A stretch of DNA of 17,408 nucleotides from a virus (taxonomy: Duplodnaviria > Heunggongvirae > Uroviricota > Caudoviricetes): the IMG/VR virus record IMGVR_UViG_2630968397_000004; one strand, given 5' to 3'. Below are positions 6,540 to 17,408 of the stretch, in pieces. The notes beneath the pieces are model-generated. The model saw nothing but the letters and a program-made list of their open reading frames with translations. It ran no database searches and had not been told where the DNA came from. The translations under genes were made by a program, and so were the position numbers. Position 1 is the first letter of the stretch. Each line of letters begins with the position of its first letter.

Positions 6540-6869
6540 CTATGCCACGACCTGTTCAAAATCTGCCGTTATGGTTACCCACAACGCCCCCACGCTTGCC
6601 GACCATTTACGACAAACCACCCTGATCGGCTTCCAGTCATAAGGTGGCGTCCACTGAAATGCGCGGACGCCACCGTGCCGTTCCAGAAAGGCTTTTAAAA
6701 ATGGGTGTTCACCTTTACGAACACGTATCTTCACGCTGTAAGTCGACAACTGGTTATTCAGTCCCGCCGCACGACGCTGTTCATAACCATCGCCCAGCTT
6801 CACTGTCACCACTTTCGGCTCTGATACCACATTCATATCCGGGCGCACTTTCCAGTGAAACGTCTCCAT
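6540..6869 (-). CDS. M: lambda M-like tail tip protein (109 aa)
   Basis: ORF track protein METFHWKVRPDMNVVSEPKVVTVKLGDGYEQRRAAGLNNQ... recognised as lambda gpM. Start overlaps the stop of the H fragment. Confidence 0.9.
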   Translation of the reverse strand: METFHWKVRPDMNVVSEPKVVTVKLGDGYEQRRAAGLNNQLSTYSVKIRVRKGEHPFLKAFLERHGGVRAFQWTPPYDWKPIRVVCRKWSASVGALWVTITADFEQVVA

Positions 6870-7208
6870 TACCGGTATGCTCCACTTAACCGGCCACCAT
6901 CACGGGCCTGCTGTTGCATAAAGTCCGCGGCCGCTTTTTTCCCGAGGTCATAAACCACCTTCAGGGCAGCCGGACCTATCTGCCCGTTCGTGCCATCGTT
7001 ATTGATCTCAATGTTGTACTGCGGGGCAAACATCACCATGCCTGAACCACCAGTATCCGCCACACCCCCCAGCTTACCATCAGCACCGCGACGCAGTGGC
7101 AGAATGGCTTCAGGTCCCGCTTCCCCCATCACACCCGCGCCTTTTGCAAAAGCAAAAAACGTCGGACGGTTAACCACCGTGCCACTGTAGCGACTCAAAT
7201 CAGCAGAC
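6869..7208 (-). pseudogene. H: 3' fragment of lambda H-like tape measure gene, truncated by IS600 insertion
   Basis: Reading frame is open from the IS600 left end (7209) down to the stop at 6869 and encodes ...ADLSRYSGTVVNRPTFFAFAKGAGVMGEAGPEAILPLRRGADGKLGG..., a tape-measure C-terminus-like sequence. The track's leading MSVKLRLP residues are encoded by IS600 terminal sequence. Confidence 0.8.
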
Positions 7209-7690
7209 TGAGGTAGCCTGAGTTTAACGGACACTCCTTCCTGAAATAGAATGGCATCAGAAGGAGCTAATAATGAGCAGAAAAACCCAACGTTACTCTA
7301 AAGAGTTCAAAGCCGAAGCTGTCAGAACGGTTCCTGAAAATCAACTTTCGATCAGTGAAGGCGCTTCCCGATTATCTCTTCCTGAAGGCACTTTAGGACA
7401 ATGGGTTACCGCCGCCAGAAAAGGGCTCGGTACTCCTGGTTCCCGCACGGTGGCTGAACTGGAATCTGAAATTCTGCAACTGCGTAAGGCGTTAAATGAA
7501 GCTCGCCTTGAGCGAGATATATTAAAAAAAGCAACAGCGTATTTTGCACAGGAGTCGCTGAAAAATACGCGTTAATCGAACAATGGCGACAACAATTTCC
7601 CATTGAAGCGATGTGTCAGGTATTTGGTGTATCCAGGAGCGGTTATTACAACTGGGTACAGCATGAACCCTCAGACAGAAAACAAAGTGA
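7209..7690 (+). mobile_element. IS600 (IS3 family), truncated copy 1: left 482 bp only
   Basis: Starts with the same TGAGGTAGCCTGAGTTTAACGG terminus and orfA offset (64 nt) as the full-length copy at 15654-16917. Sequence stops matching after ...AAAGTGA, where a second IS600 left end begins. Confidence 0.9.
7273..7575 (+). CDS. IS600 OrfA (100 aa, helix-turn-helix transposase N-terminal part)
   Basis: ORF track; identical to orfA of copy 3. A7 slippery run (TTAAAAAAAGC) near the 3' end where the -1 frame is open. Confidence 0.9.
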   Translation: MSRKTQRYSKEFKAEAVRTVPENQLSISEGASRLSLPEGTLGQWVTAARKGLGTPGSRTVAELESEILQLRKALNEARLERDILKKATAYFAQESLKNTR

Positions 7691-7751
7691 GGTAGCCTGA
7701 GTTTAACGGACACTCCTTCCTGAAATAGAATGGCATCAGAAGGAGCTAATA

Positions 7752-8054
7752 ATGAGCAGAAAAACCCAACGTTACTCTAAAGAGTTCAAAGCCGAAGCTG
7801 TCAGAACGGTTCTTGAAAATCAACTTTCGATCAGTGAAGGCGCTTCCCGATTATCTCTTCCTGAAGGCACTTTAGGACAATGGGTTACCGCCGCCAGAAA
7901 AGGGCTCGGTACTCCTGGTTCCCGCACGGTGGCTGAACTGGAATCTGAAATTCTGCAACTGCGTAAGGCGTTAAATGAAGCTCGCCTTGAGCGAGATATA
8001 TTAAAAAAAGCAACAGCGTATTTTGCACAGGAGTCGCTGAAAAATACGCGTTAA
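7752..8054 (+). CDS. IS600 OrfA (100 aa)
   Basis: ORF track; P21L variant of the other copies. Confidence 0.9.
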   Translation: MSRKTQRYSKEFKAEAVRTVLENQLSISEGASRLSLPEGTLGQWVTAARKGLGTPGSRTVAELESEILQLRKALNEARLERDILKKATAYFAQESLKNTR

Positions 8055-8089
8055 TCGAACAATGGCGACAACAATTTCCCATTGAAGCG

Positions 8090-8729
8090 ATGTGTCAGGT
8101 ATTTGGTGTATCCAGGAGCGGTTATTACAACTGGGTACAGCATGAACCCTCAGACAGAAAACAAAGTGATGAGCGGCTAAAACTGGAGATTAAGGTGGCA
8201 CATATCCGCACTCGCGAAACATATGGAACCCGGCGGCTCCAGACGGAGCTGGCAGAGAATGGCATCATCGTTGGTCGTGACCGACTGGCACGTCTTCGTA
8301 AGGAGCTAAGGCTACGCTGTAAGCAGAAACGCAAGTTCAGAGCGACTACGAACTCGAACCACAATCTGCCAGTTGCGCCAAATCTGCTGAACCAGACGTT
8401 CGCTCCTACAGCACCAAATCAGGTCTGGGTGGCGGACCTGACGTATGTTGCCACACAGGAGGGATGGTTGTACCTCGCAGGAGCAGTCTGGTCTGAAAAC
8501 ATCAATGTCGCGTAAAGGTAACTGTTACGACAACGCTCCGATGGAAAGCTTCTGGGGAACGCTGAAAAATGAGAGCCTGAGCCACTATCGTTTTAATAAC
8601 CGGGATGAAGCCATCTCAGTAATACGGGAATACATTGAGATTTTCTACAATCGTCAGCGTCGTCACTCTCGTCTGGGGAATATCTCCCCGGCAGCCTTCA
8701 GGGAAAAATATCATCAGATGGCTGCTTAA
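8090..8729 (+). pseudogene. IS600 orfB disrupted by the 179-bp deletion (frameshifted; split into 141-aa and 94-aa track ORFs)
   Basis: Track ORFs 8090..8515 and 8445..8729 together correspond to the 272-aa OrfB of copy 3 minus residues IKDVYTCE...DYRVIQ. Confidence 0.85.
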
Positions 8730-8822
8730 AAAAAGAACAAATGGTAGTGTCCGCTATTGCCAGTACACCTCACACTCTATCCAACAAACCACCCACAGTT
8801 AATCGGAATAAAAGCAGAGTGC

Positions 8823-8954: not shown

Positions 8955-9029
<75 letters not shown>

Positions 9030-9032
9030 ATA

Positions 9033-9108
<76 letters not shown>

Positions 9109-9110
9109 GC

Positions 9111-9187
9111 TGGCCCACCACCGAGGACTCGAACCTCGCACCGTCAACTTAGAAGGTTGATGCTCTATCCGGATGAGCTAGTGGTGG
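9111..9187 (-). tRNA. tRNA-Arg (anticodon UCU), 77 nt with encoded CCA
   Basis: Reverse complement CCACCACTAGCTCATCCGGATAGAGCATCAACCTTCTAAGTTGACGGTGCGAGGTTCGAGTCCTCGGTGGTGGGCCA. All four stems pair; anticodon loop CTTCTAA. Confidence 0.75.
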
Positions 9188-9188
9188 T

Positions 9189-9265
9189 TGGTGGCCCTTG
9201 CTGGACTTGAACCAGCGACCTGGCGATTATGAGTCGCTCGCTCTGACCAACTGAGCTAAAGGGCC
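9189..9265 (-). tRNA. tRNA with CAU anticodon, Ile2 (ileX/ileZ-like, lysidine) or Met, 77 nt with encoded CCA
   Basis: Reverse complement GGCCCTTTAGCTCAGTTGGTCAGAGCGAGCGACTCATAATCGCCAGGTCGCTGGTTCAAGTCCAGCAAGGGCCACCA. Close resemblance to E. coli tRNA-Ile2 (GCGACTCATAATCGC core and identical T arm). Separated from tRNA-Arg by 1 nt. Confidence 0.75.
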
Positions 9266-10009: not shown

Positions 10010-10296
10010 AAATATCCCTCCTTTCTCCAGATTTCTTGTGTGCGAAAAACACCTTCTGCATGCATCAGGCGTAATTCTTCTTTGGTGTAATCGCTGGTTT
10101 TTACCCGCCCGTCGATTAAATCGTGGCACGAGCTACAGGCAATCGCTGCCTGCATATCGTGTGGCTTTATCGCTGTTCCGCACGTTCCCGCCAGTCGGTA
10201 ATGCGCCAGCACAGACGTTTCCGGATCGTGATTGCAGTAGCCAGGAATTCTGACGGTGCACATCTGCCCCCGCGCCGCTTTACGTAAATCCACCAT
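10006..10296 (-). CDS. YbcO-like (DUF1364) Cys-rich nin-region protein, putative nuclease (96 aa)
   Basis: ORF track protein MVDLRKAARGQMCTVRIPGYCNHDPETSVLAHYRLAGTCGTAIKPHDMQAAIACSSCHDLIDGR... resembles E. coli DLP12 YbcO as recalled. Confidence 0.7.
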   Translation of the reverse strand: MVDLRKAARGQMCTVRIPGYCNHDPETSVLAHYRLAGTCGTAIKPHDMQAAIACSSCHDLIDGRVKTSDYTKEELRLMHAEGVFRTQEIWRKEGYL

Positions 10297-10895
10297 TACG
10301 CAAACTCCAGCAGCTGCGCGGCCACATTTTCGACTTGTTCCGGAGAGGAAAATTTACGGAACAGAATCCAGTTCCACAGCACATTCAGAACAGATTTATA
10401 AACCTGCTGAAACTCGGTTTCGTCCATATTCGCAAAAGCGATGGATTTTGCCCGACGCCCGCGGCTACCGTCCGGATAAAAATGTTCGGTGTAAAATCCA
10501 GCCTGAATGGTTACCCACTCGCGAAAAGCCTCAAACGACTTTAGCAATGCCGTATCCCGGGTTCTGCGTGTCGCAACTGTATTCAGATATTGCTCTGCGG
10601 CTTCGCTCAGAGCTGGCGTATGTTCCCGACCTACTGATTCGCACAGGTAATCAACGAAACCAGACAGCAGTTCTCGTTCGCGAGGCGTGATCGCCCCACC
10701 GACCGGAGTCCAGTAATCGAATCCCAGTTGCAGGAGTTTGAAAAAACGCTTGTGGAATGCGTAGTTACGCACACGCTTAAAGTCTGCGTGTATCCACTCA
10801 CCTGTTTTGATTTGATGCAGAAAATCGCAACTCTCCGGCGTCGCCGGGAGAAGTAATCCGGAAGAGGTTTGTTTGATCAGTTGTATATGCGCCAT
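10296..10895 (-). CDS. nin-region phage protein of unknown function (199 aa; possibly DUF1367 family)
   Basis: ORF track. Stop overlaps the YbcO-like start. Family assignment is from recollection of typical gene order and is not verified. Confidence 0.6.
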   Translation of the reverse strand: MAHIQLIKQTSSGLLLPATPESCDFLHQIKTGEWIHADFKRVRNYAFHKRFFKLLQLGFDYWTPVGGAITPRERELLSGFVDYLCESVGREHTPALSEAAEQYLNTVATRRTRDTALLKSFEAFREWVTIQAGFYTEHFYPDGSRGRRAKSIAFANMDETEFQQVYKSVLNVLWNWILFRKFSSPEQVENVAAQLLEFA

Positions 10896-10966
10896 CGTAG
10901 TTCTCCGCTGGCGCAGTAGAATGGGTGTTCAGCCCGTTATGTAGTATACCAGAATTAATGCCAATA

Positions 10967-11179
10967 CTAACAGGATGCTCTGACTCGCAATTCATCCAGC
11001 AGTTTATCATTTCCCATAATGTCACTTACCCTCATCGGTAAAAAAATTGCCTTTCGACCATTACGATACATCATTGATTTTTTGGTTTCAGGGAAGTAAT
11101 CCATTTCGACTATAACTGACAGGTCATCACGACGTATGACTGCGTATTTACTACTAAATAGTTTCTTTATTTTTTCCAC
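10967..11179 (-). CDS. hypothetical 70-aa protein, GTG start
   Basis: ORF track. Start codon is GTG, preceded by GGAGG 4 nt upstream. No recognisable family. Confidence 0.5.
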   Translation of the reverse strand: MEKIKKLFSSKYAVIRRDDLSVIVEMDYFPETKKSMMYRNGRKAIFLPMRVSDIMGNDKLLDELRVRASC

Positions 11180-11285
11180 GATGCCTCCAGGTTTATAAGT
11201 ACAAACGGTTATATCAACATAGAGACAAAAGGTGATGCTGCCAACTTACTGATTTAGTGTATGATCGTGTTTTTGAGGTGCTCCA

Positions 11286-11561
11286 GTGGCTTCTGTTTCT
11301 ATCAGCTGTCCCTCCTGTTCAGCTACTGACGGGGTGGTGCGTAACGGCAAAAGCACTGCCGGACATCAGCGCTATCTCTGCTCTCACTGCCGTAAAACAT
11401 GGCAACTGCAGTTCACTTACACCGCTTCCCAACCCGGTACGCACCAGAAAATCATTGATATGGCCATGAATGGCGTTGGATGCCGGGCAACTGCACGCAT
11501 TATGGGCGTTGGCCTCAACACGATTTTACGTCACTTAAAAAACTCAGGCCGCAGTCGGTAA
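11286..11561 (+). CDS. insA: IS1 InsA (91 aa)
   Basis: ORF track protein [43 protein letters not shown]... A6C frameshift motif TTAAAAAACTC at 11535-11545. Confidence 0.95.
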
Positions 11562-11983
11562 CCTCGCGCATACAGCCGGGCAGTGACGTCATCGTCTGCG
11601 CGGAAATGGACGAACAGTGGGGCTATGTCGGGGCTAAATCGCGCCAGCGCTGGCTGTTTTACGCGTATGACAGTCTCCGGAAGACGGTTGTTGCGCACGT
11701 ATTCGGTGAACGCACTATGGCGACGCTGGGGCGTCTTATGAGCCTGCTGTCACCCTTTGACGTGGTGATATGGATGACGGATGGCTGGCCGCTGTATGAA
11801 TCCCGCCTGAAGGGAAAGCTGCACGTAATCAGCAAGCGATATACGCAGCGAATTGAGCGGCATAACCTGAATCTGAGGCAGCACCTGGCACGGCTGGGAC
11901 GGAAGTCGCTGTCGTTCTCAAAATCGGTGGAGCTGCATGACAAAGTCATCGGGCATTATCTGAACATAAAACACTATCAATAA
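11480..11983 (+). CDS. insB: IS1 InsB reading frame (expressed as InsAB' transposase by -1 frameshift)
   Basis: ORF track 167 aa; -1 frame relative to insA. Confidence 0.9.
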
Positions 11984-12059
11984 GTTGGAGTCATTACCAA
12001 AAAAACCGCCGAAACGGGTTAAGTGCGGGTGCGTTGAGGATGCCTGACACATCAAAGGT

Positions 12060-12081
12060 GGCGGGAGATTACTCTCCCGCC
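12060..12081 (-). terminator. 9-bp perfect hairpin (GGCGGGAGA-ttac-TCTCCCGCC) 10 nt downstream of the hok stop; putative hok mRNA 3' stem-loop/terminator
   Basis: Seen directly. Followed on the minus strand by ACCTTTGATGTG (moderately U-rich). Confidence 0.45.
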
Positions 12082-12090
12082 TGGTCACTC

Positions 12091-12246
12091 TTACTCTCTA
12101 GATTCGTAGTCTACGAAAACAGCGACCTCCGTCTGGCCGATTCGGATTCGTACCTCGCAGAGGTCTTTCCTCGTTACCAGTGCCGTCACAATGACGGTTA
12201 AACAGATGACGATCAGGGCGATTAACATCGCCTTTTGCTGCTTCAT
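12091..12246 (-). CDS. hok: Hok-family type I toxin (51 aa)
   Basis: MKQQKAMLIALIVICLTVIVTALVTRKDLCEVRIRIGQTEVAVFVDYESRE, recognised as Hok/Gef family (closest to HokD/RelF as recalled). SD AAGGAGAAG upstream of ATG. Track ORF 12091..12303 is the in-frame upstream (mok-like) extension. Confidence 0.85.
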   Translation of the reverse strand: MKQQKAMLIALIVICLTVIVTALVTRKDLCEVRIRIGQTEVAVFVDYESRE

Positions 12247-12420
12247 AGCCTGCTTCTCCTTGCCTTTCGGCACGTAAGAGGCTAACCTACATTTGTGAGA
12301 CATAGATTGGGCCTCAGATTAATGTTAAGCGTCTTGCAGGACGCGTAATGTTAACTGGGGCTTTTCTCTGTCTGCCTTACAGTGACATACCCGAGGCAGA
12401 CAGCCTCAAGCACCCGCAGC
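12247..12420 (-). promoter_or_regulatory. hok mRNA leader with mok-like upstream start and conserved hok/sok leader elements
   Basis: Minus-strand sequence GCTTGAGGCTGTCTGCCTC...GGCAGACAGAGAAAAGCCCC...AGGCCCAATCTATGTCTCAC...TAGCCTCTTAC...GCAAGGAGAAGCAGGCTATGAAG parallels the plasmid R1 hok/sok leader as recalled. Confidence 0.6.
12296..12350 (+). ncRNA. putative Sok-like antisense RNA, antitoxin of the hok locus
   Basis: Plus-strand promoter-like -35 TTGCCT (12260-12265), 17-bp spacer, -10 TAACCT (12283-12288), positioned like the R1 sok promoter. Transcript would be complementary to the mok-like start region. Hairpin GCGTC-ttgcag-GACGC at 12329-12344. Inferred, not proven. Confidence 0.35.
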
Positions 12421-12584
12421 AATCTTACCGACACCGATAAGAAAACGCTATTTTTTATTGCCAGCACCATCTATCCAGGCTAGTTTATCTGCGTCAGAAC
12501 GGCGCAATGCGCTCGCCTGAGATACGTTTACTTGCCATGGTAACAACAGGTAACGGCAATTGCTGTTTCTGTTTTGTTTCCTTC

Positions 12585-12615
12585 AAAAACCCCGGACCAT
12601 CAATCCGGGGTTTTT
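12585..12615. terminator. bidirectional Rho-independent terminator (AAAAA-CCCCGG-loop-CCGGGG-TTTTT)
   Basis: Seen directly: stem 12590-12595 / 12605-12610, A5 at 12585-12589 and T5 at 12611-12615. Lies immediately after the 27-aa ORF stop on the minus strand. Confidence 0.75.
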
Positions 12616-12620
12616 GTTTG

Positions 12621-12704
12621 TTAACCCCAACGGCAAATCGAATACACCACCAGCGCCACCGCCATCGCAATTCCTACCGTGGTGAATGCCTCAGGCCAGG
12701 TCAT
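12621..12704 (-). CDS. 27-aa hydrophobic peptide (MTWPEAFTTVGIAMAVALVVYSICRWG), translationally coupled to the upstream gene
   Basis: Manual translation. ATG overlaps the stop of the DUF551-like gene (ATGA). GGAGGTG 5 nt upstream. Followed directly by the terminator. Below the ORF-track size cutoff. Confidence 0.45.
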   Translation of the reverse strand: MTWPEAFTTVGIAMAVALVVYSICRWG

Positions 12705-13066
12705 TGATTCACCTCCTGCGGTGGTTCCGGTAGCGGCATCCAGTGAGTTGAGCTCTCTACTTCAACGCCGTCTTTGTCCACAAAAGCCATCTTATTCCCG
12801 CCACGAGTGGGGCAAAAAACCTTATCCCAGGAACCGGGGAATACATTCCCGAGATCATCGAGAAGAATCACATCGCAATATTCAGCAGGAACTGCATCAC
12901 TACAGCTTATCCAGCCAGCCGGAGCTACCGGAGAGTTGCCAGCCTTACGCATGGCCATTTCCACGATTTCAACCATATCTCCTGGTGGAATTTTACAAAG
13001 TTGCCCAATACATTTCTGCTGCCTGGCATATTCGAGAATGTGCTCCAGTTTGGTTCGATTAATCAT
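12701..13066 (-). CDS. DUF551-like phage protein (121 aa)
   Basis: ORF track. C-terminal WISCSDAVPAEY...VILLDDLGNVFPGSWDK...THWMPLPEPP resembles the conserved DUF551 C-terminal motif as recalled. Start overlaps the stop of the upstream 221-aa gene. Confidence 0.65.
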   Translation of the reverse strand: MINRTKLEHILEYARQQKCIGQLCKIPPGDMVEIVEMAMRKAGNSPVAPAGWISCSDAVPAEYCDVILLDDLGNVFPGSWDKVFCPTRGGNKMAFVDKDGVEVESSTHWMPLPEPPQEVNQ

Positions 13067-13731
13067 TATTTATCTCCCTTAAGCATGGCAGCGCGGCAGG
13101 CGTTCCAGCCATCAACATAATCAAACGTATTACTATCGTTTGGCCCGATTTCATCCGGCACTATCGGCTCTGGTTGGATAGTGACGTTGGCAAAGGCAGC
13201 ACGCAAACCGGTTTTAATTTCTTCGATTTCATCAGAGCCAAGCGATGAATCTGACAGTGCGTGATGGAATGCGTAAGCCATGTCGTCGTTTACTGCAACC
13301 GGCACTGCCGGCGCTGCGTAAAGCGGTGTTATATCTGCCCGAAAATCACATGCTTTATGCAGTCGTACCCAACACTCAACTTCCGCTTTGTCAAAATATA
13401 TAGCAGTGAACGTATTAGATTCCTGGTCAACTTGAGTAAACGTCACCTTCCACGCTACAGCTACGGCTTTCCATCCATCAGGTTGTCGCATTCGCGGGGC
13501 AGCATAAAGCTCATGCATTCCATCAGGCAGCGAGTGACCCACATACTCACCGAACCCGTCAATACACATGCCCCCATCTTCAACAATGCATTCCGCTACA
13601 GGCTCTGCTTCCAGTGATGCCAGAGCGATAAGCGCCAGTTCACGAATTTCACCGCCGTCTATATCGTCAATATCATCGCGGCCAGAAATGTTAGCCAGCC
13701 ATTGCAGTCGCTCTTTGGTAATAGTGGTCAT
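13066..13731 (-). CDS. hypothetical phage protein (221 aa, acidic N-terminus)
   Basis: ORF track. Start overlaps the HNH stop (ATGA) and stop overlaps the downstream start, so the three genes are translationally coupled. No recognisable family. Confidence 0.7.
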   Translation of the reverse strand: MTTITKERLQWLANISGRDDIDDIDGGEIRELALIALASLEAEPVAECIVEDGGMCIDGFGEYVGHSLPDGMHELYAAPRMRQPDGWKAVAVAWKVTFTQVDQESNTFTAIYFDKAEVECWVRLHKACDFRADITPLYAAPAVPVAVNDDMAYAFHHALSDSSLGSDEIEEIKTGLRAAFANVTIQPEPIVPDEIGPNDSNTFDYVDGWNACRAAMLKGDK

Positions 13732-14093
13732 GCCGTAGCCCCTTCTTGATATTTTTCAAACCAGAACACAACCGGGTCAGATTTCATTTCAACCAATCCC
13801 ATACGAACCAGCGCTTTGCCTTTCCCGGACGCAAGGAATTCACGACGACCATCACTGATAATTCGTCGATAATCTTCCAGGCTACTGCAATGCTTGTGCA
13901 GATTGCATGGGTGGCATGCTGGTACCATGTTGGATATATCGTCACGTTCCTGGTGAAGCATATTTCCATCAAAACGAATGACCGGTTTTACATGGTCTGC
14001 ATGCCACTTTTCGCCAAGTTCGCAGCCGCAATAAGCGCAGCGACCACCGAACTTCATGCGCAGTTCTGCACGTTGTTTTTTCGTCAGTGCCAT
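13728..14093 (-). CDS. HNH endonuclease (121 aa)
   Basis: In-frame ATG at 14091-14093 with AAGGAAAG Shine-Dalgarno. MALTKKQRAELRMKFGGRCAYCGCELGEKWHADHVKPVIRFDGNMLHQERDDISNMVPACHPCNLHK has the C-x2-C, H-x-D-H, N and C-x2-C-N-x-H-K elements of the HNH/His-Me finger. Track ORF start at 14183 is over-extended. Confidence 0.85.
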   Translation of the reverse strand: MALTKKQRAELRMKFGGRCAYCGCELGEKWHADHVKPVIRFDGNMLHQERDDISNMVPACHPCNLHKHCSSLEDYRRIISDGRREFLASGKGKALVRMGLVEMKSDPVVFWFEKYQEGATA

Positions 14094-14094
14094 A

Positions 14095-14313
14095 TCAGCT
14101 TTCCTTATACGGATTAATTTTATTGTGCAGTGTGTTGAATGACGCCCATACCACGTCGTTATACAATTCAATAACTGGCTCAATTATTTTTCCGATTATC
14201 CAGACAAAAATTAGCGGGGATATCGGTGTCATCAACACGATAAACAGAATGAGAAACAGGAATTCTGTTGTTCTACTCTTTCGCGGATATTTTTTTCTAA
14301 ATAATGTAACCAT
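14095..14313 (-). CDS. possible 72-aa small membrane protein in an AT-rich segment
   Basis: ORF track. One strongly hydrophobic segment (FLFLILFIVLMTPISPLIFVWIIGKII). Weak Shine-Dalgarno; the local AT-richness means this could be a chance ORF. Confidence 0.35.
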   Translation of the reverse strand: MVTLFRKKYPRKSRTTEFLFLILFIVLMTPISPLIFVWIIGKIIEPVIELYNDVVWASFNTLHNKINPYKES

Positions 14314-14405
14314 TCATTACCGCCCTTTCGGGCGGTCTCCTGATGATTTGAGGGTGCAGAAATCCCTCCGGTTAAGGATTAAATTTTTAACAGTGCTAAA
14401 TTTAA

Positions 14406-14746
14406 TTATTCAGTTCTGGATTTTGTCGCCCTGCGTATCCGCGCTTTCGCGTTACGCTCAATCTGTATCAGCTTTTCTATATTTCTCCGCCTTTCCTGTT
14501 CCTCCTGGCGCAATAGCCTTACATCATCTGCCAGTCTGGTTTCTCTTTTTGCCACAGAGAGCATCCAGTCAAACGGCTCCACAACCGCACCGCAGATTTT
14601 ACAGCGGACCTGACGCTCTTTTTCGTCAACCCGGACAGAGGCGTGATGGCAATATGGTCTTTCCGATGGTTCATAAAGAAAATTAACCTGATTACGTGGG
14701 TCATCCTCTTTTACCGGAAATAAAACGATATTGCTTAACTCATCTT
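14406..14746 (-). pseudogene. 3' portion of a 118-aa Zn-ribbon/basic coiled-coil phage gene interrupted by IS1 copy B
   Basis: Frame is open from the IS1 junction to TAA at 14406-14408 (...CHHASVRVDEKERQVRCKICGAVVEPFDWMLSVAKRETRLADDVRLLRQEEQERRRNIEKLIQIERNAKARIRRATKSRTE). Continues across the IS1 target duplication into 15515-15540. Confidence 0.6.
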
Positions 14747-14801
14747 GGTGATGCTGCCAACTTACTGATTTAGTGTATGATGGTGTTTTTGAGGTGCTCC
14801 A

Positions 14802-15077
14802 GTGGCTTCTGTTTCTATCAGCTGTCCCTCCTGTTCAGCTACTGACGGGGTGGTGCGTAACGGCAAAAGCACTGCCGGACATCAGCGCTATCTCTGCTCT
14901 CACTGCCGTAAAACATGGCAACTGCAGTTCACTTACACCGCTTCTCAACCCGGTACGCACCAGAAAATCATTGATATGGCCATGAATGGCGTTGGATGCC
15001 GGGCAACAGCACGCATTATGGGCGTTGGCCTCAACACGATTTTACGTCACTTAAAAAACTCAGGCCGCAGTCGGTAA
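14802..15077 (+). CDS. insA: IS1 InsA (91 aa)
   Basis: ORF track; A6C frameshift motif present. Confidence 0.95.
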
Positions 15078-15499
15078 CCTCGCGCATACAGCCGGGCAGT
15101 GACGTCATCGTCTGCGCGGAAATGGACGAACAGTGGGGCTATGTCGGGGCTAAATCGCGCCAGCGCTGGCTGTTTTACGCGTATGACAGTCTCCGGAAGA
15201 CGGTTGTTGCGCACGTATTCGGTGAACGCACTATGGCGACGCTGGGGCGTCTTATGAGCCTGCTGTCACCCTTTGACGTGGTGATATGGATGACGGATGG
15301 CTGGCCGCTGTATGAATCCCGCCTGAAGGGAAAGCTGCACGTAATCAGCAAGCGATATACGCAGCGAATTGAGCGGCATAACCTGAATCTGAGGCAGCAC
15401 CTGGCACGGCTGGGACGGAAGTCGCTGTCGTTCTCAAAATCGGTGGAGCTGCATGACAAAGTCATCGGGCATTATCTGAACATAAAACACTATCAATAA
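14996..15499 (+). CDS. insB: IS1 InsB reading frame
   Basis: ORF track. Confidence 0.9.
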
Positions 15500-15514
15500 G
15501 TTGGAGTCATTACC

Positions 15515-15540
15515 AACTCATCTTCTGGTTTTATTTCCAT
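15515..15540 (-). pseudogene. 5' portion (start codon and first codons MEIKPEDEL...) of the IS1-interrupted 118-aa gene
   Basis: ATG at 15538-15540 (minus) with AAAGGAGAGGAGC upstream. Joining across one copy of the 10-bp duplication restores a continuous 118-codon ORF. Confidence 0.55.
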
Positions 15541-15717
15541 GCTCCTCTCCTTTGATGCGAATACCAGCGGTAATTGAAGCCTGATAGCTAATTTTACTCA
15601 CAGTACCGCCTCCTGAAATTTCCCCTGATAAAACGCCAGCACGCGCTGCATAGTGAGGTAGCCTGAGTTTAACGGACACTCCTTCCTGAAATAGAATGGC
15701 ATCAGAAGGAGCTAATA

Positions 15718-16020
15718 ATGAGCAGAAAAACCCAACGTTACTCTAAAGAGTTCAAAGCCGAAGCTGTCAGAACGGTTCCTGAAAATCAACTTTCGATCAG
15801 TGAAGGCGCTTCCCGATTATCTCTTCCTGAAGGCACTTTAGGACAATGGGTTACCGCCGCCAGAAAAGGGCTCGGTACTCCTGGTTCCCGCACGGTGGCT
15901 GAACTGGAATCTGAAATTCTGCAACTGCGTAAGGCGTTAAATGAAGCTCGCCTTGAGCGAGATATATTAAAAAAAGCAACAGCGTATTTTGCACAGGAGT
16001 CGCTGAAAAATACGCGTTAA
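15718..16020 (+). CDS. IS600 OrfA (100 aa)
   Basis: ORF track. Confidence 0.95.
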   Translation: MSRKTQRYSKEFKAEAVRTVPENQLSISEGASRLSLPEGTLGQWVTAARKGLGTPGSRTVAELESEILQLRKALNEARLERDILKKATAYFAQESLKNTR

Positions 16021-16055
16021 TCGAACAATGGCGACAACAATTTCCCATTGAAGCG

Positions 16056-16874
16056 ATGTGTCAGGTATTTGGTGTATCCAGGAGCGGTTATTACAACTGG
16101 GTACAGCATGAACCCTCAGACAGAAAACAAAGTGATGAGCGGCTAAAACTGGAGATTAAGGTGGCACATATCCGCACTCGCGAAACATATGGAACCCGGC
16201 GGCTCCAGACGGAGCTGGCAGAGAATGGCATCATCGTTGGTCGTGACCGACTGGCACGTCTTCGTAAGGAGCTAAGGCTACGCTGTAAGCAGAAACGCAA
16301 GTTCAGAGCGACTACGAACTCGAACCACAATCTGCCAGTTGCGCCAAATCTGCTGAACCAGACGTTCGCTCCTACAGCACCAAATCAGGTCTGGGTGGCG
16401 GACCTGACGTATGTTGCCACACAGGAGGGATGGTTGTACCTCGCTGGCATCAAAGATGTTTATACGTGCGAAATTGTCGGCTACGCCATGGGAGAGCGCA
16501 TGACAAAAGAGCTGACAGGTAAAGCCCTGTTTATGGCGCTCAGGAGCCAGCGCCCACCTGCCGGGCTAATCCACCACTCTGATCGAGGTTCACAGTACTG
16601 CGCATACGATTACCGGGTCATACAGGAGCAGTCTGGTCTGAAAACATCAATGTCGCGTAAAGGTAACTGTTACGACAACGCTCCGATGGAAAGCTTCTGG
16701 GGAACGCTGAAAAATGAGAGCCTGAGCCACTATCGTTTTAATAACCGGGATGAAGCCATCTCAGTAATACGGGAATACATTGAGATTTTCTACAATCGTC
16801 AGCGTCGTCACTCTCGTCTGGGGAATATCTCCCCGGCAGCCTTCAGGGAAAAATATCATCAGATGGCTGCTTAA
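16056..16874 (+). CDS. IS600 OrfB (DDE transposase catalytic part; produced as OrfAB fusion by -1 frameshift)
   Basis: ORF track 272 aa. The -1 frame is open upstream back to the A7 slippery run at the end of orfA. Confidence 0.95.
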   Translation: MCQVFGVSRSGYYNWVQHEPSDRKQSDERLKLEIKVAHIRTRETYGTRRLQTELAENGIIVGRDRLARLRKELRLRCKQKRKFRATTNSNHNLPVAPNLLNQTFAPTAPNQVWVADLTYVATQEGWLYLAGIKDVYTCEIVGYAMGERMTKELTGKALFMALRSQRPPAGLIHHSDRGSQYCAYDYRVIQEQSGLKTSMSRKGNCYDNAPMESFWGTLKNESLSHYRFNNRDEAISVIREYIEIFYNRQRRHSRLGNISPAAFREKYHQMAA

Positions 16875-16917
16875 AAAAAGAACAAATGGTAGTGTCCGCT
16901 ATTGCCAGTACACCTCA

Positions 16918-17408
16918 TTGTGAATGTCAGAAGAAACCTGACGATACTTGATATGTTCGGTCCCCCAAAAACAAATGCCGGGATCCGGACGGTAACATTA
17001 CTGCAGCCGGCTCTTGAAGCACTGAAGGAGCAATACAAACTGACCGGGCATCATCGCAAAAGCGAAATCACTTTTTATCATCGGGAGTACGGCAGAACTG
17101 AAAAGCAAAAACTGCATTTTGTTTTCATGCCCAGGGTGTGTAACGAAAAACAGAAACCTTATTACTCGGTAAGCAGTTTGGGTGCAAGATGGAATGCAGC
17201 AGTAAAACGTGCTGGTATTCGCCGCCGTAATCCGTACCATACGCGACATACTTTTGCCTGCTGGCTGTTGACGGCAGGAGCGAACCCGGCATTTATAGCC
17301 AGCCAGATGGGGCATGAAACTGCGCAAATGGTGTATGAAATTTACGGTATGTGGATTGATGACATGAACGACGAACAGATAGCCATGTTGAATGCGCGGT
17401 TATCGTAG
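16918..17408 (+). pseudogene. 3' fragment of a phage tyrosine integrase (catalytic C-terminal domain), truncated at its 5' side by IS600
   Basis: Frame is open from the IS600 right end to TAG at 17406-17408. ...NAGIRTVTLLQ...YHTRHTFACWLLTAGANPAFIASQMGHETAQMVYEIYGMW shows R...HxxR...Y tyrosine-recombinase elements. Track ORF start (TTG 16902) lies inside IS600. No upstream coding continuation left of the IS. Confidence 0.75.

Follow-up and report, generated by a model that had tools for sequence, protein, structure and literature searches.

The locus analysed here raises the question of whether an IS1 element without a target-site duplication marks the place where a prophage lost its immunity and replication genes. 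The DNA under study, which we call the window, is a stretch of 17,408 nucleotides. It is part of a Shigella sonnei chromosome and contains a Rac-like lambdoid prophage that has heavily decayed and adjoins ttcA. Wherever the two are colinear, the window has 99.9–100% identity to S. sonnei chromosomes whose loci were reached through the exact DUF1367 protein. Of the accessions used, HE616528 is S. sonnei 53G and CP014099 is FDAARGOS_90 (PMC5447701). Two IS1 copies are present in the window, of which the first, copy A, has no target-site duplication, and the immunity and replication genes are absent. An earlier note on this DNA had joined these two facts, and proposed that a large IS1-mediated deletion or inter-IS1 recombination had copy A as its joint and removed cI, cro, O and P from between the nin genes and hok. 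The question is how much DNA was in fact lost at copy A, and whether the missing genes belong to that loss. The features around the two IS1 copies are as follows.

10296–10895, minus strand: DUF1367 gene of the nin region
10967–11179, minus strand: 70-aa ORF, a conserved downstream neighbour of hok in relatives
11180–11230, no strand assigned: left spacer remnant of 51 bp, adjoining the 70-aa ORF on its upstream side, with GAGACAAAA as its last bases
11231–11998, plus strand: IS1 copy A, full-length at 768 bp, with both terminal inverted repeats intact and no target-site duplication
11286–11561, plus strand: insA of copy A, 91 aa, with Zn_ribbon_InsA and HTH_Tnp_IS1 (Pfam)
11480–11983, plus strand: insB' reading frame of copy A, with DDE_Tnp_IS1 (Pfam)
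11999–12090, minus strand: right spacer remnant, the first 92 nt after the hok stop codon
12091–12303, minus strand: mok/hok reading frames, intact; hok itself at 12091–12246, 51 aa, HOK_GEF with an E-value of 1.7e-21
12241–12415, minus strand: sok match (Rfam RF01794) of 118 bits, the gathering score being 59; hok/sok regulatory region intact
14747–15514, plus strand: IS1 copy B, a simple insertion with the 10-bp duplication AACTCATCTT at 14737–14746 and 15515–15524

The two IS1 copies and their junctions

Copy A has the length, the imperfect inverted repeats of ~23 bp and the insA and insB' frames of an IS1 element. Its left end (IRL) reads GGTGATGCTGCCAACTTACTGAT and its right end (IRR) finishes in ATCAATAAGTTGGAGTCATTACC, and when the right-end repeat is taken as GGTAATGACTCCAACTTATTGAT for comparison, 18 of the 23 positions match. 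Pfam matches to the insA and insB' frames have E-values from 1e-21 to 6e-78, and copies A and B differ at 3 of 768 positions (36, 199 and 262). The one IS1 trait that copy A fails to display is a direct duplication of ~9 bp (8–10 bp) at its borders, as the flanking 9-mers, GAGACAAAA on the left and AAAAAAACC on the right, have only an A run in common. Repeat lengths of 7–12 bp were also sought with the boundaries displaced by up to 3 bp, and with one mismatch allowed no hidden repeat of at least 7 bp was detected at shifts of −3 to +3 on each side; the earlier note had itself raised a shifted boundary as a way in which a duplication could come to light, and none did. Without a duplication, copy A can no longer count as a simple insertion, although its identity as IS1 is not in doubt.

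Comparison of the flanks likewise bears out the difference that had been noted between copy A and copy B, with its perfect 10-bp duplication, and an unoccupied site agrees. In the E. coli prophage of FDAARGOS_944 (L001), AACTCATCTT is present once, at 11739–11748, and the window flanks of copy B overlap by exactly 10 bp on this empty site, which indicates that the copy B duplication is real. The usual target duplication of IS1 is 9 bp and copy B has 10 bp; among the fetched loci, the five complete IS1 copies with the appearance of simple insertions, copy B included, have duplications of 8, 9, 9, 9 and 10 bp. The sole other IS1 copy without a duplication in these loci is that of L003, which adjoins a DUF977 gene annotated as frameshifted.

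The spacer at copy A and the gene order of relatives

Unoccupied-site comparators for copy A were the prophages of E. coli FDAARGOS_944 (L001) and VL40 (L002), identified by searching each flank on its own in a set of 5,426 complete E. coli genomes. When the query consisted of the two flanks with IS1 removed, both were found together in 141 of the 5,426 genomes, and in all 40 of those 141 that were listed the match was split in two by either 132–135 bp or ~970 bp of extra DNA, the ~970-bp subset having a doc-type toxin-antitoxin module inserted between the flanks. The distance from GAGAC to CCGCC is 146 nt in L001 and L002, and at the same place the window has 4 A, IS1 and 7 A. The left breakpoint falls within a run of 5 A in the relatives, and on the right IS1 abuts 7 A (7 U on the hok strand) where L001 and L002 have 8. 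Relative to L001, L002 and L017–L020, the window is without exactly 135 bp of spacer, missing between 11230 and 11999 and bounded by intact IS1 ends. This DNA is AT-rich and conserved across six E. coli prophages in base-by-base alignment, and is absent from the window. Likewise, ~133 bp are missing in the window compared with L021–L028, and another six genomes, IS1-free and encoding an identical 70-aa protein, show the same break with ~133 bp extra.

With 135 bp gone exactly between intact IS1 ends, and with no target duplication, copy A is, on this sequence comparison, the joint of a 135-bp intergenic deletion, which removed non-coding DNA alone. Its flanks are colinear with those of the relatives, as at a local deletion joint associated with an IS element. 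Of the IS1-mediated deletion proposed for copy A the joint therefore stands, with 135 bp missing between the IS ends, and the large size does not, as spacer is all that was lost. The lost 135 bp gave no Rfam match above noise and contained no terminator-like site, two promoter-like sites were found against 1.9 expected from shuffled sequence, and the ORFs were only short and unconvincing. The spacer deletion left both hok/sok and the 70-aa ORF unharmed. With a Hok/Gef frame and a sok RNA region, the former has the make-up of a hok/sok type I toxin-antitoxin locus; compared with its E. coli relatives the S. sonnei Hok has one residue changed (T36I), with the frame and sok region otherwise intact.

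In L001, L002 and PP818812, the last a complete phage genome of 47.5 kb, genes follow one another in the early-right direction with the repressor first, then a cro-like HTH gene and ydaT, and then the replication genes (ydaU/O-like and dnaC-like P), after which DUF977 is annotated in L001 and L002. These are followed by ead/Ea22 (annotated in L002 and PP818812) and small ORFs (DUF4014, HNH and DUF551 in L001 and L002), by hok, the 70-aa ORF, DUF1367, YbcO/DUF1364 and DUF1133, and at the downstream end by tRNAs (L001 and L002), lysis genes and terminase. The flanks of copy A are thus not parted by cI, cro, O and P in intact relatives and lie ~146 bp from each other. Judged by the 141 E. coli genomes, PP818812, L001 and L002, the adjacency of nin and hok is the ancestral order, a result that the earlier note had itself named as speaking against its reading. 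As hok is the natural neighbour of nin, the immunity and replication block is to be expected beyond the hok-to-DUF4014 block, past copy B, and not at the position of copy A where it had been assumed to belong.

Two further observations concern these gene orders. PP818812.1 (L016) is deposited as the Actinobacillus pleuropneumoniae phage vB_Apl-pPE4, and its hok–spacer–70-aa-ORF module has 96% identity to E. coli Rac-like prophages, which, together with its Rac-like gene order, makes the deposited host look doubtful. In the window, a cluster of four prophage tRNA genes (8955–9265, minus strand) separates the nin/Q-like region from the former lysis region, namely Gly-tcc, Thr-tgt, Arg-tct and a tRNA with a CAT anticodon, which is Ile in L001 according to RefSeq.

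Both junctions of copy A are identical in nine of ten S. sonnei loci, 53G included, and as these are independent assemblies an assembly artefact is excluded. Every S. sonnei locus that keeps both ends of copy A already has the deletion joint, and since this joint is common to S. sonnei loci that include the lineage II strain 53G, the event predates the common ancestor of the genomes examined. The left junction only is kept in L011 (CP180280.1, 7692–8627), a chromosome chosen by its identical DUF1367 protein and presumably S. sonnei, where copy A itself is truncated at nt 638 by an IS600 and the hok-to-DUF4014 block is gone, which points to a continuing IS600-driven erosion of the locus. In the complete-genome collection no E. 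coli record covered at least 80% of a query spanning the joint, and the best matches to this query (L003–L005) proved to be unrelated insertions with IS1 on the opposite side of hok. The left junction of copy A was also absent from metagenome_contigs in an exact-pattern scan of low power.

Routes to the copy A joint

Very probably, IS1 would have entered the ~146-bp AT-rich spacer that separates hok/sok, at its 3' end, from the 70-aa ORF with which nin begins, and 135 bp of this spacer would later have been lost together with one copy of the target duplication, all of it unrelated to the loss of the immunity and replication genes. IS1 prefers AT-rich targets. The likeliest route would be an adjacent deletion promoted by the IS1 transposase, in which one IS end attacks a nearby site on the same molecule, and we favour it over homologous recombination between two IS1 copies of the same orientation in one spacer because it needs one insertion only. 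Both routes would yield a complete IS1 without a duplication and with flanks otherwise colinear with intact relatives. Adjacent deletion, recombination of two IS1 copies and a one-step insertion-deletion give the same end product, from which we infer the order of events and the molecular route. The junctions that would have existed before the deletion, IRR followed by GAGACAAAA and spacer, and spacer followed by AAAAAAACC and IRL, had no match in exact-pattern scans of genome_contigs, and an IS1 in this spacer that still has its 9-bp duplication was not encountered; the scans are of low power because this collection holds one genome per species. An inversion or a recombination with a distant IS1 is ruled out, as the flanks are natural neighbours in the same orientation.

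Copy A might instead have arisen by recombination of IS1 copies occupying the same spacer in two homologous lambdoid prophages, so that its left flank (nin side) and its right flank (hok side) would come from different lineages. Divergence from L001 shifts across IS1, from 8 mismatches in 511 bp (1.6%) in the left flank (10720–11230) to 6 in ~2750 bp (0.25%) in the right flank (11999–14746), which suggests a mosaic boundary at or near the joint, and S. sonnei is rich in IS1 copies and carries several lambdoid remnants. However, such a step would fit two prophage lineages meeting at the joint as well as the ordinary mosaicism of a lambdoid prophage in L001, and it may equally be a normal mosaic boundary of that prophage, as divergence from L001 climbs to ~7% left of 10700. 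Searching with the exact 70-aa protein gave no IS1-free relative closer than L001; all six contexts found were more diverged, matching the window at 93–94% on the left and 89–93% on the right (hok-proximal match). Furthermore, a recombinant would require two independent IS1 insertions in the same orientation, 135 bp apart, as well as a chromosomal rearrangement, and the complementary junction was found in no genome in the low-power genome_contigs scans with their one genome per species. Taken together, we regard such an origin as unlikely.

Very unlikely, in our view, is an account in which copy A reflects either a non-canonical, one-step arrival of IS1 with loss of the spacer, or a recurrent and selected insertion of IS elements at hok 3' ends that alters termination or fold-back of the hok mRNA. 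Missing duplications frequently go back to recombination between IS copies or to adjacent deletions, and insertion of an IS into a break formed by a deletion has been proposed for IS5 and IS481 (PMC11708052). Were deletion and IS1 arrival at this locus a single event of that kind, with IS1 inserting without duplication into a break made during the deletion, the end product would be the same as in those cases, an IS amid a deletion with no duplication. None-the-less, the same study classes its own 14 IS150 deletion events, which arose in a long-term evolution experiment and range from 14 bp to 48,894 bp, as adjacent deletions (PMC11708052), and nothing in the copy A data demands a non-canonical route, which leaves a single event with a slim chance. 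Slimmer still is the chance that slippage between A runs removed the 135 bp first and that IS1 then entered the merged run with its duplication hidden in poly-A: each breakpoint does fall within a run of A, which in L001 and L002 counts 5 A for the left breakpoint and 8 A for the right one, and the flanks have AAAA in common, but a duplication of the usual length would give nine identical bases, and GAGACAAAA and AAAAAAACC differ, at most 4 bp could be duplicated compared with 8–10 bp at the other IS1 copies examined, and no listed relative has a shortened spacer free of IS1.

The IS600 joint and comparison with known systems

The end of the window past copy B contains the following features.

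15598–15653, minus strand: DUF977 gene remnant, a 56-bp 3' piece and the last of the early-right operon that is present
15654–16917, plus strand: IS600, 1264 bp, with OrfA (100 aa) and OrfB (272 aa) and no 3-bp duplication
16953–17408, plus strand: integrase C-terminal fragment, next to ttcA and dbpA in S. sonnei loci

Past copy B the window is colinear with L001 into the 3' end of DUF977, once an ISEc52 peculiar to L001 is set aside. The junctions of IS600 in the window read CATAG–IS600–TTGTG, and the far flank, which begins TTGTGAATG, leads to the integrase fragment. S. sonnei 53G (L009, HE616528) has this same IS600 in the form of a simple insertion, flanked by a 3-bp TAG duplication, CATAG–IS600–TAGCTTCG, the empty site in L001 being CATAGCTTCG, and beyond it 53G has the rest of DUF977, followed by P, O, ydaT, cro and cI. 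By comparison with these two loci, IS600 at 15654–16917, which lies 3.6 kb from copy A, is the real joint, the place where DUF977, P, O, ydaT, cro, cI and all else up to int were lost. The immunity and replication loss varies among S. sonnei, the genes being kept in 53G and lost in this strain. As 53G has the identical copy A joint and yet keeps cI, cro, ydaT, O, P and DUF977 past copy B and IS600, copy A does not explain the missing genes; with hok directly beside the 70-aa ORF and nin in 141 E. coli genomes and a phage genome, and with the DNA missing at copy A amounting to 135 bp of spacer only, the large deletion or inter-IS1 recombination proposed there almost certainly did not take place.

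A separate IS600 cluster is found at 7209–8772, where a partial copy (nt 1–482; 7209–7690) overlaps a second copy (7688–8772) by TGA. The second copy is missing nt 792–969 (178 bp), a segment that is apparently present in five of the other S. sonnei loci (L006, L008, L010, L012 and L014), in which the two alignment blocks are ~175 bp further apart than in the window. This cluster connects a tail-gene remnant (6869–7234) to the tRNA region, and the lysis, terminase and head genes are consequently missing in the window.

The missing target duplication marks some rearrangement and not its size, which here is a 135-bp spacer and not a 10-kb operon. Beyond correct annotation the result has little value, the multi-kilobase loss being reassigned from copy A to IS600. 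Copy A is an example of routine IS-driven prophage decay in Shigella, and nothing in it departs from known IS1 biology.

Adjacent deletions promoted by IS1 were reportedly described by Reif and Saedler in 1975 in the gal region of E. coli. As in IS-promoted adjacent deletions, the whole IS is kept at copy A, one of the flanks is shifted compared with the unoccupied site, a duplication is lacking, and the deletion begins exactly at an IS end; unlike adjacent deletions that have been observed, the copy A event is deduced from its end product alone. With regard to hok, IS elements closely follow hok at chromosomal loci of E. coli K-12, as Pedersen and Gerdes are said to have described in 1999; they reportedly lie ~20 bp past the hok frame, where they remove the 3' fold-back element. 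Likewise, in the window an IS lies immediately 3' of hok, but unlike in K-12 it is 92 nt past the stop codon, at the terminal U run, with the hok/mok frames and the sok region intact, and an arrangement of this kind does not imply that hok would be inactivated by copy A.

Rac-type prophages and phages (with a dicA-like repressor, ydaT, ydaU and hok; for example PP818812) have the same gene order and the same hok–spacer–70-aa-ORF–DUF1367 module. Unlike these relatives, the S. sonnei copy no longer has lysis, terminase and head genes, the loss having occurred at an IS600 cluster, and this strain also lost the int-to-DUF977 segment at another IS600. Such losses are in keeping with the wider picture in the genus, in which IS1 and IS600 are among five IS that have expanded in every Shigella species and that create strain-to-strain variation, both being active in S. 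sonnei (Hawkey et al. 2020, PMC7373316). The window is one instance of this IS-driven decay, with two IS1 and three complete or partial IS600 in 17 kb, at a locus that, as elsewhere in Shigella, differs between S. sonnei strains.
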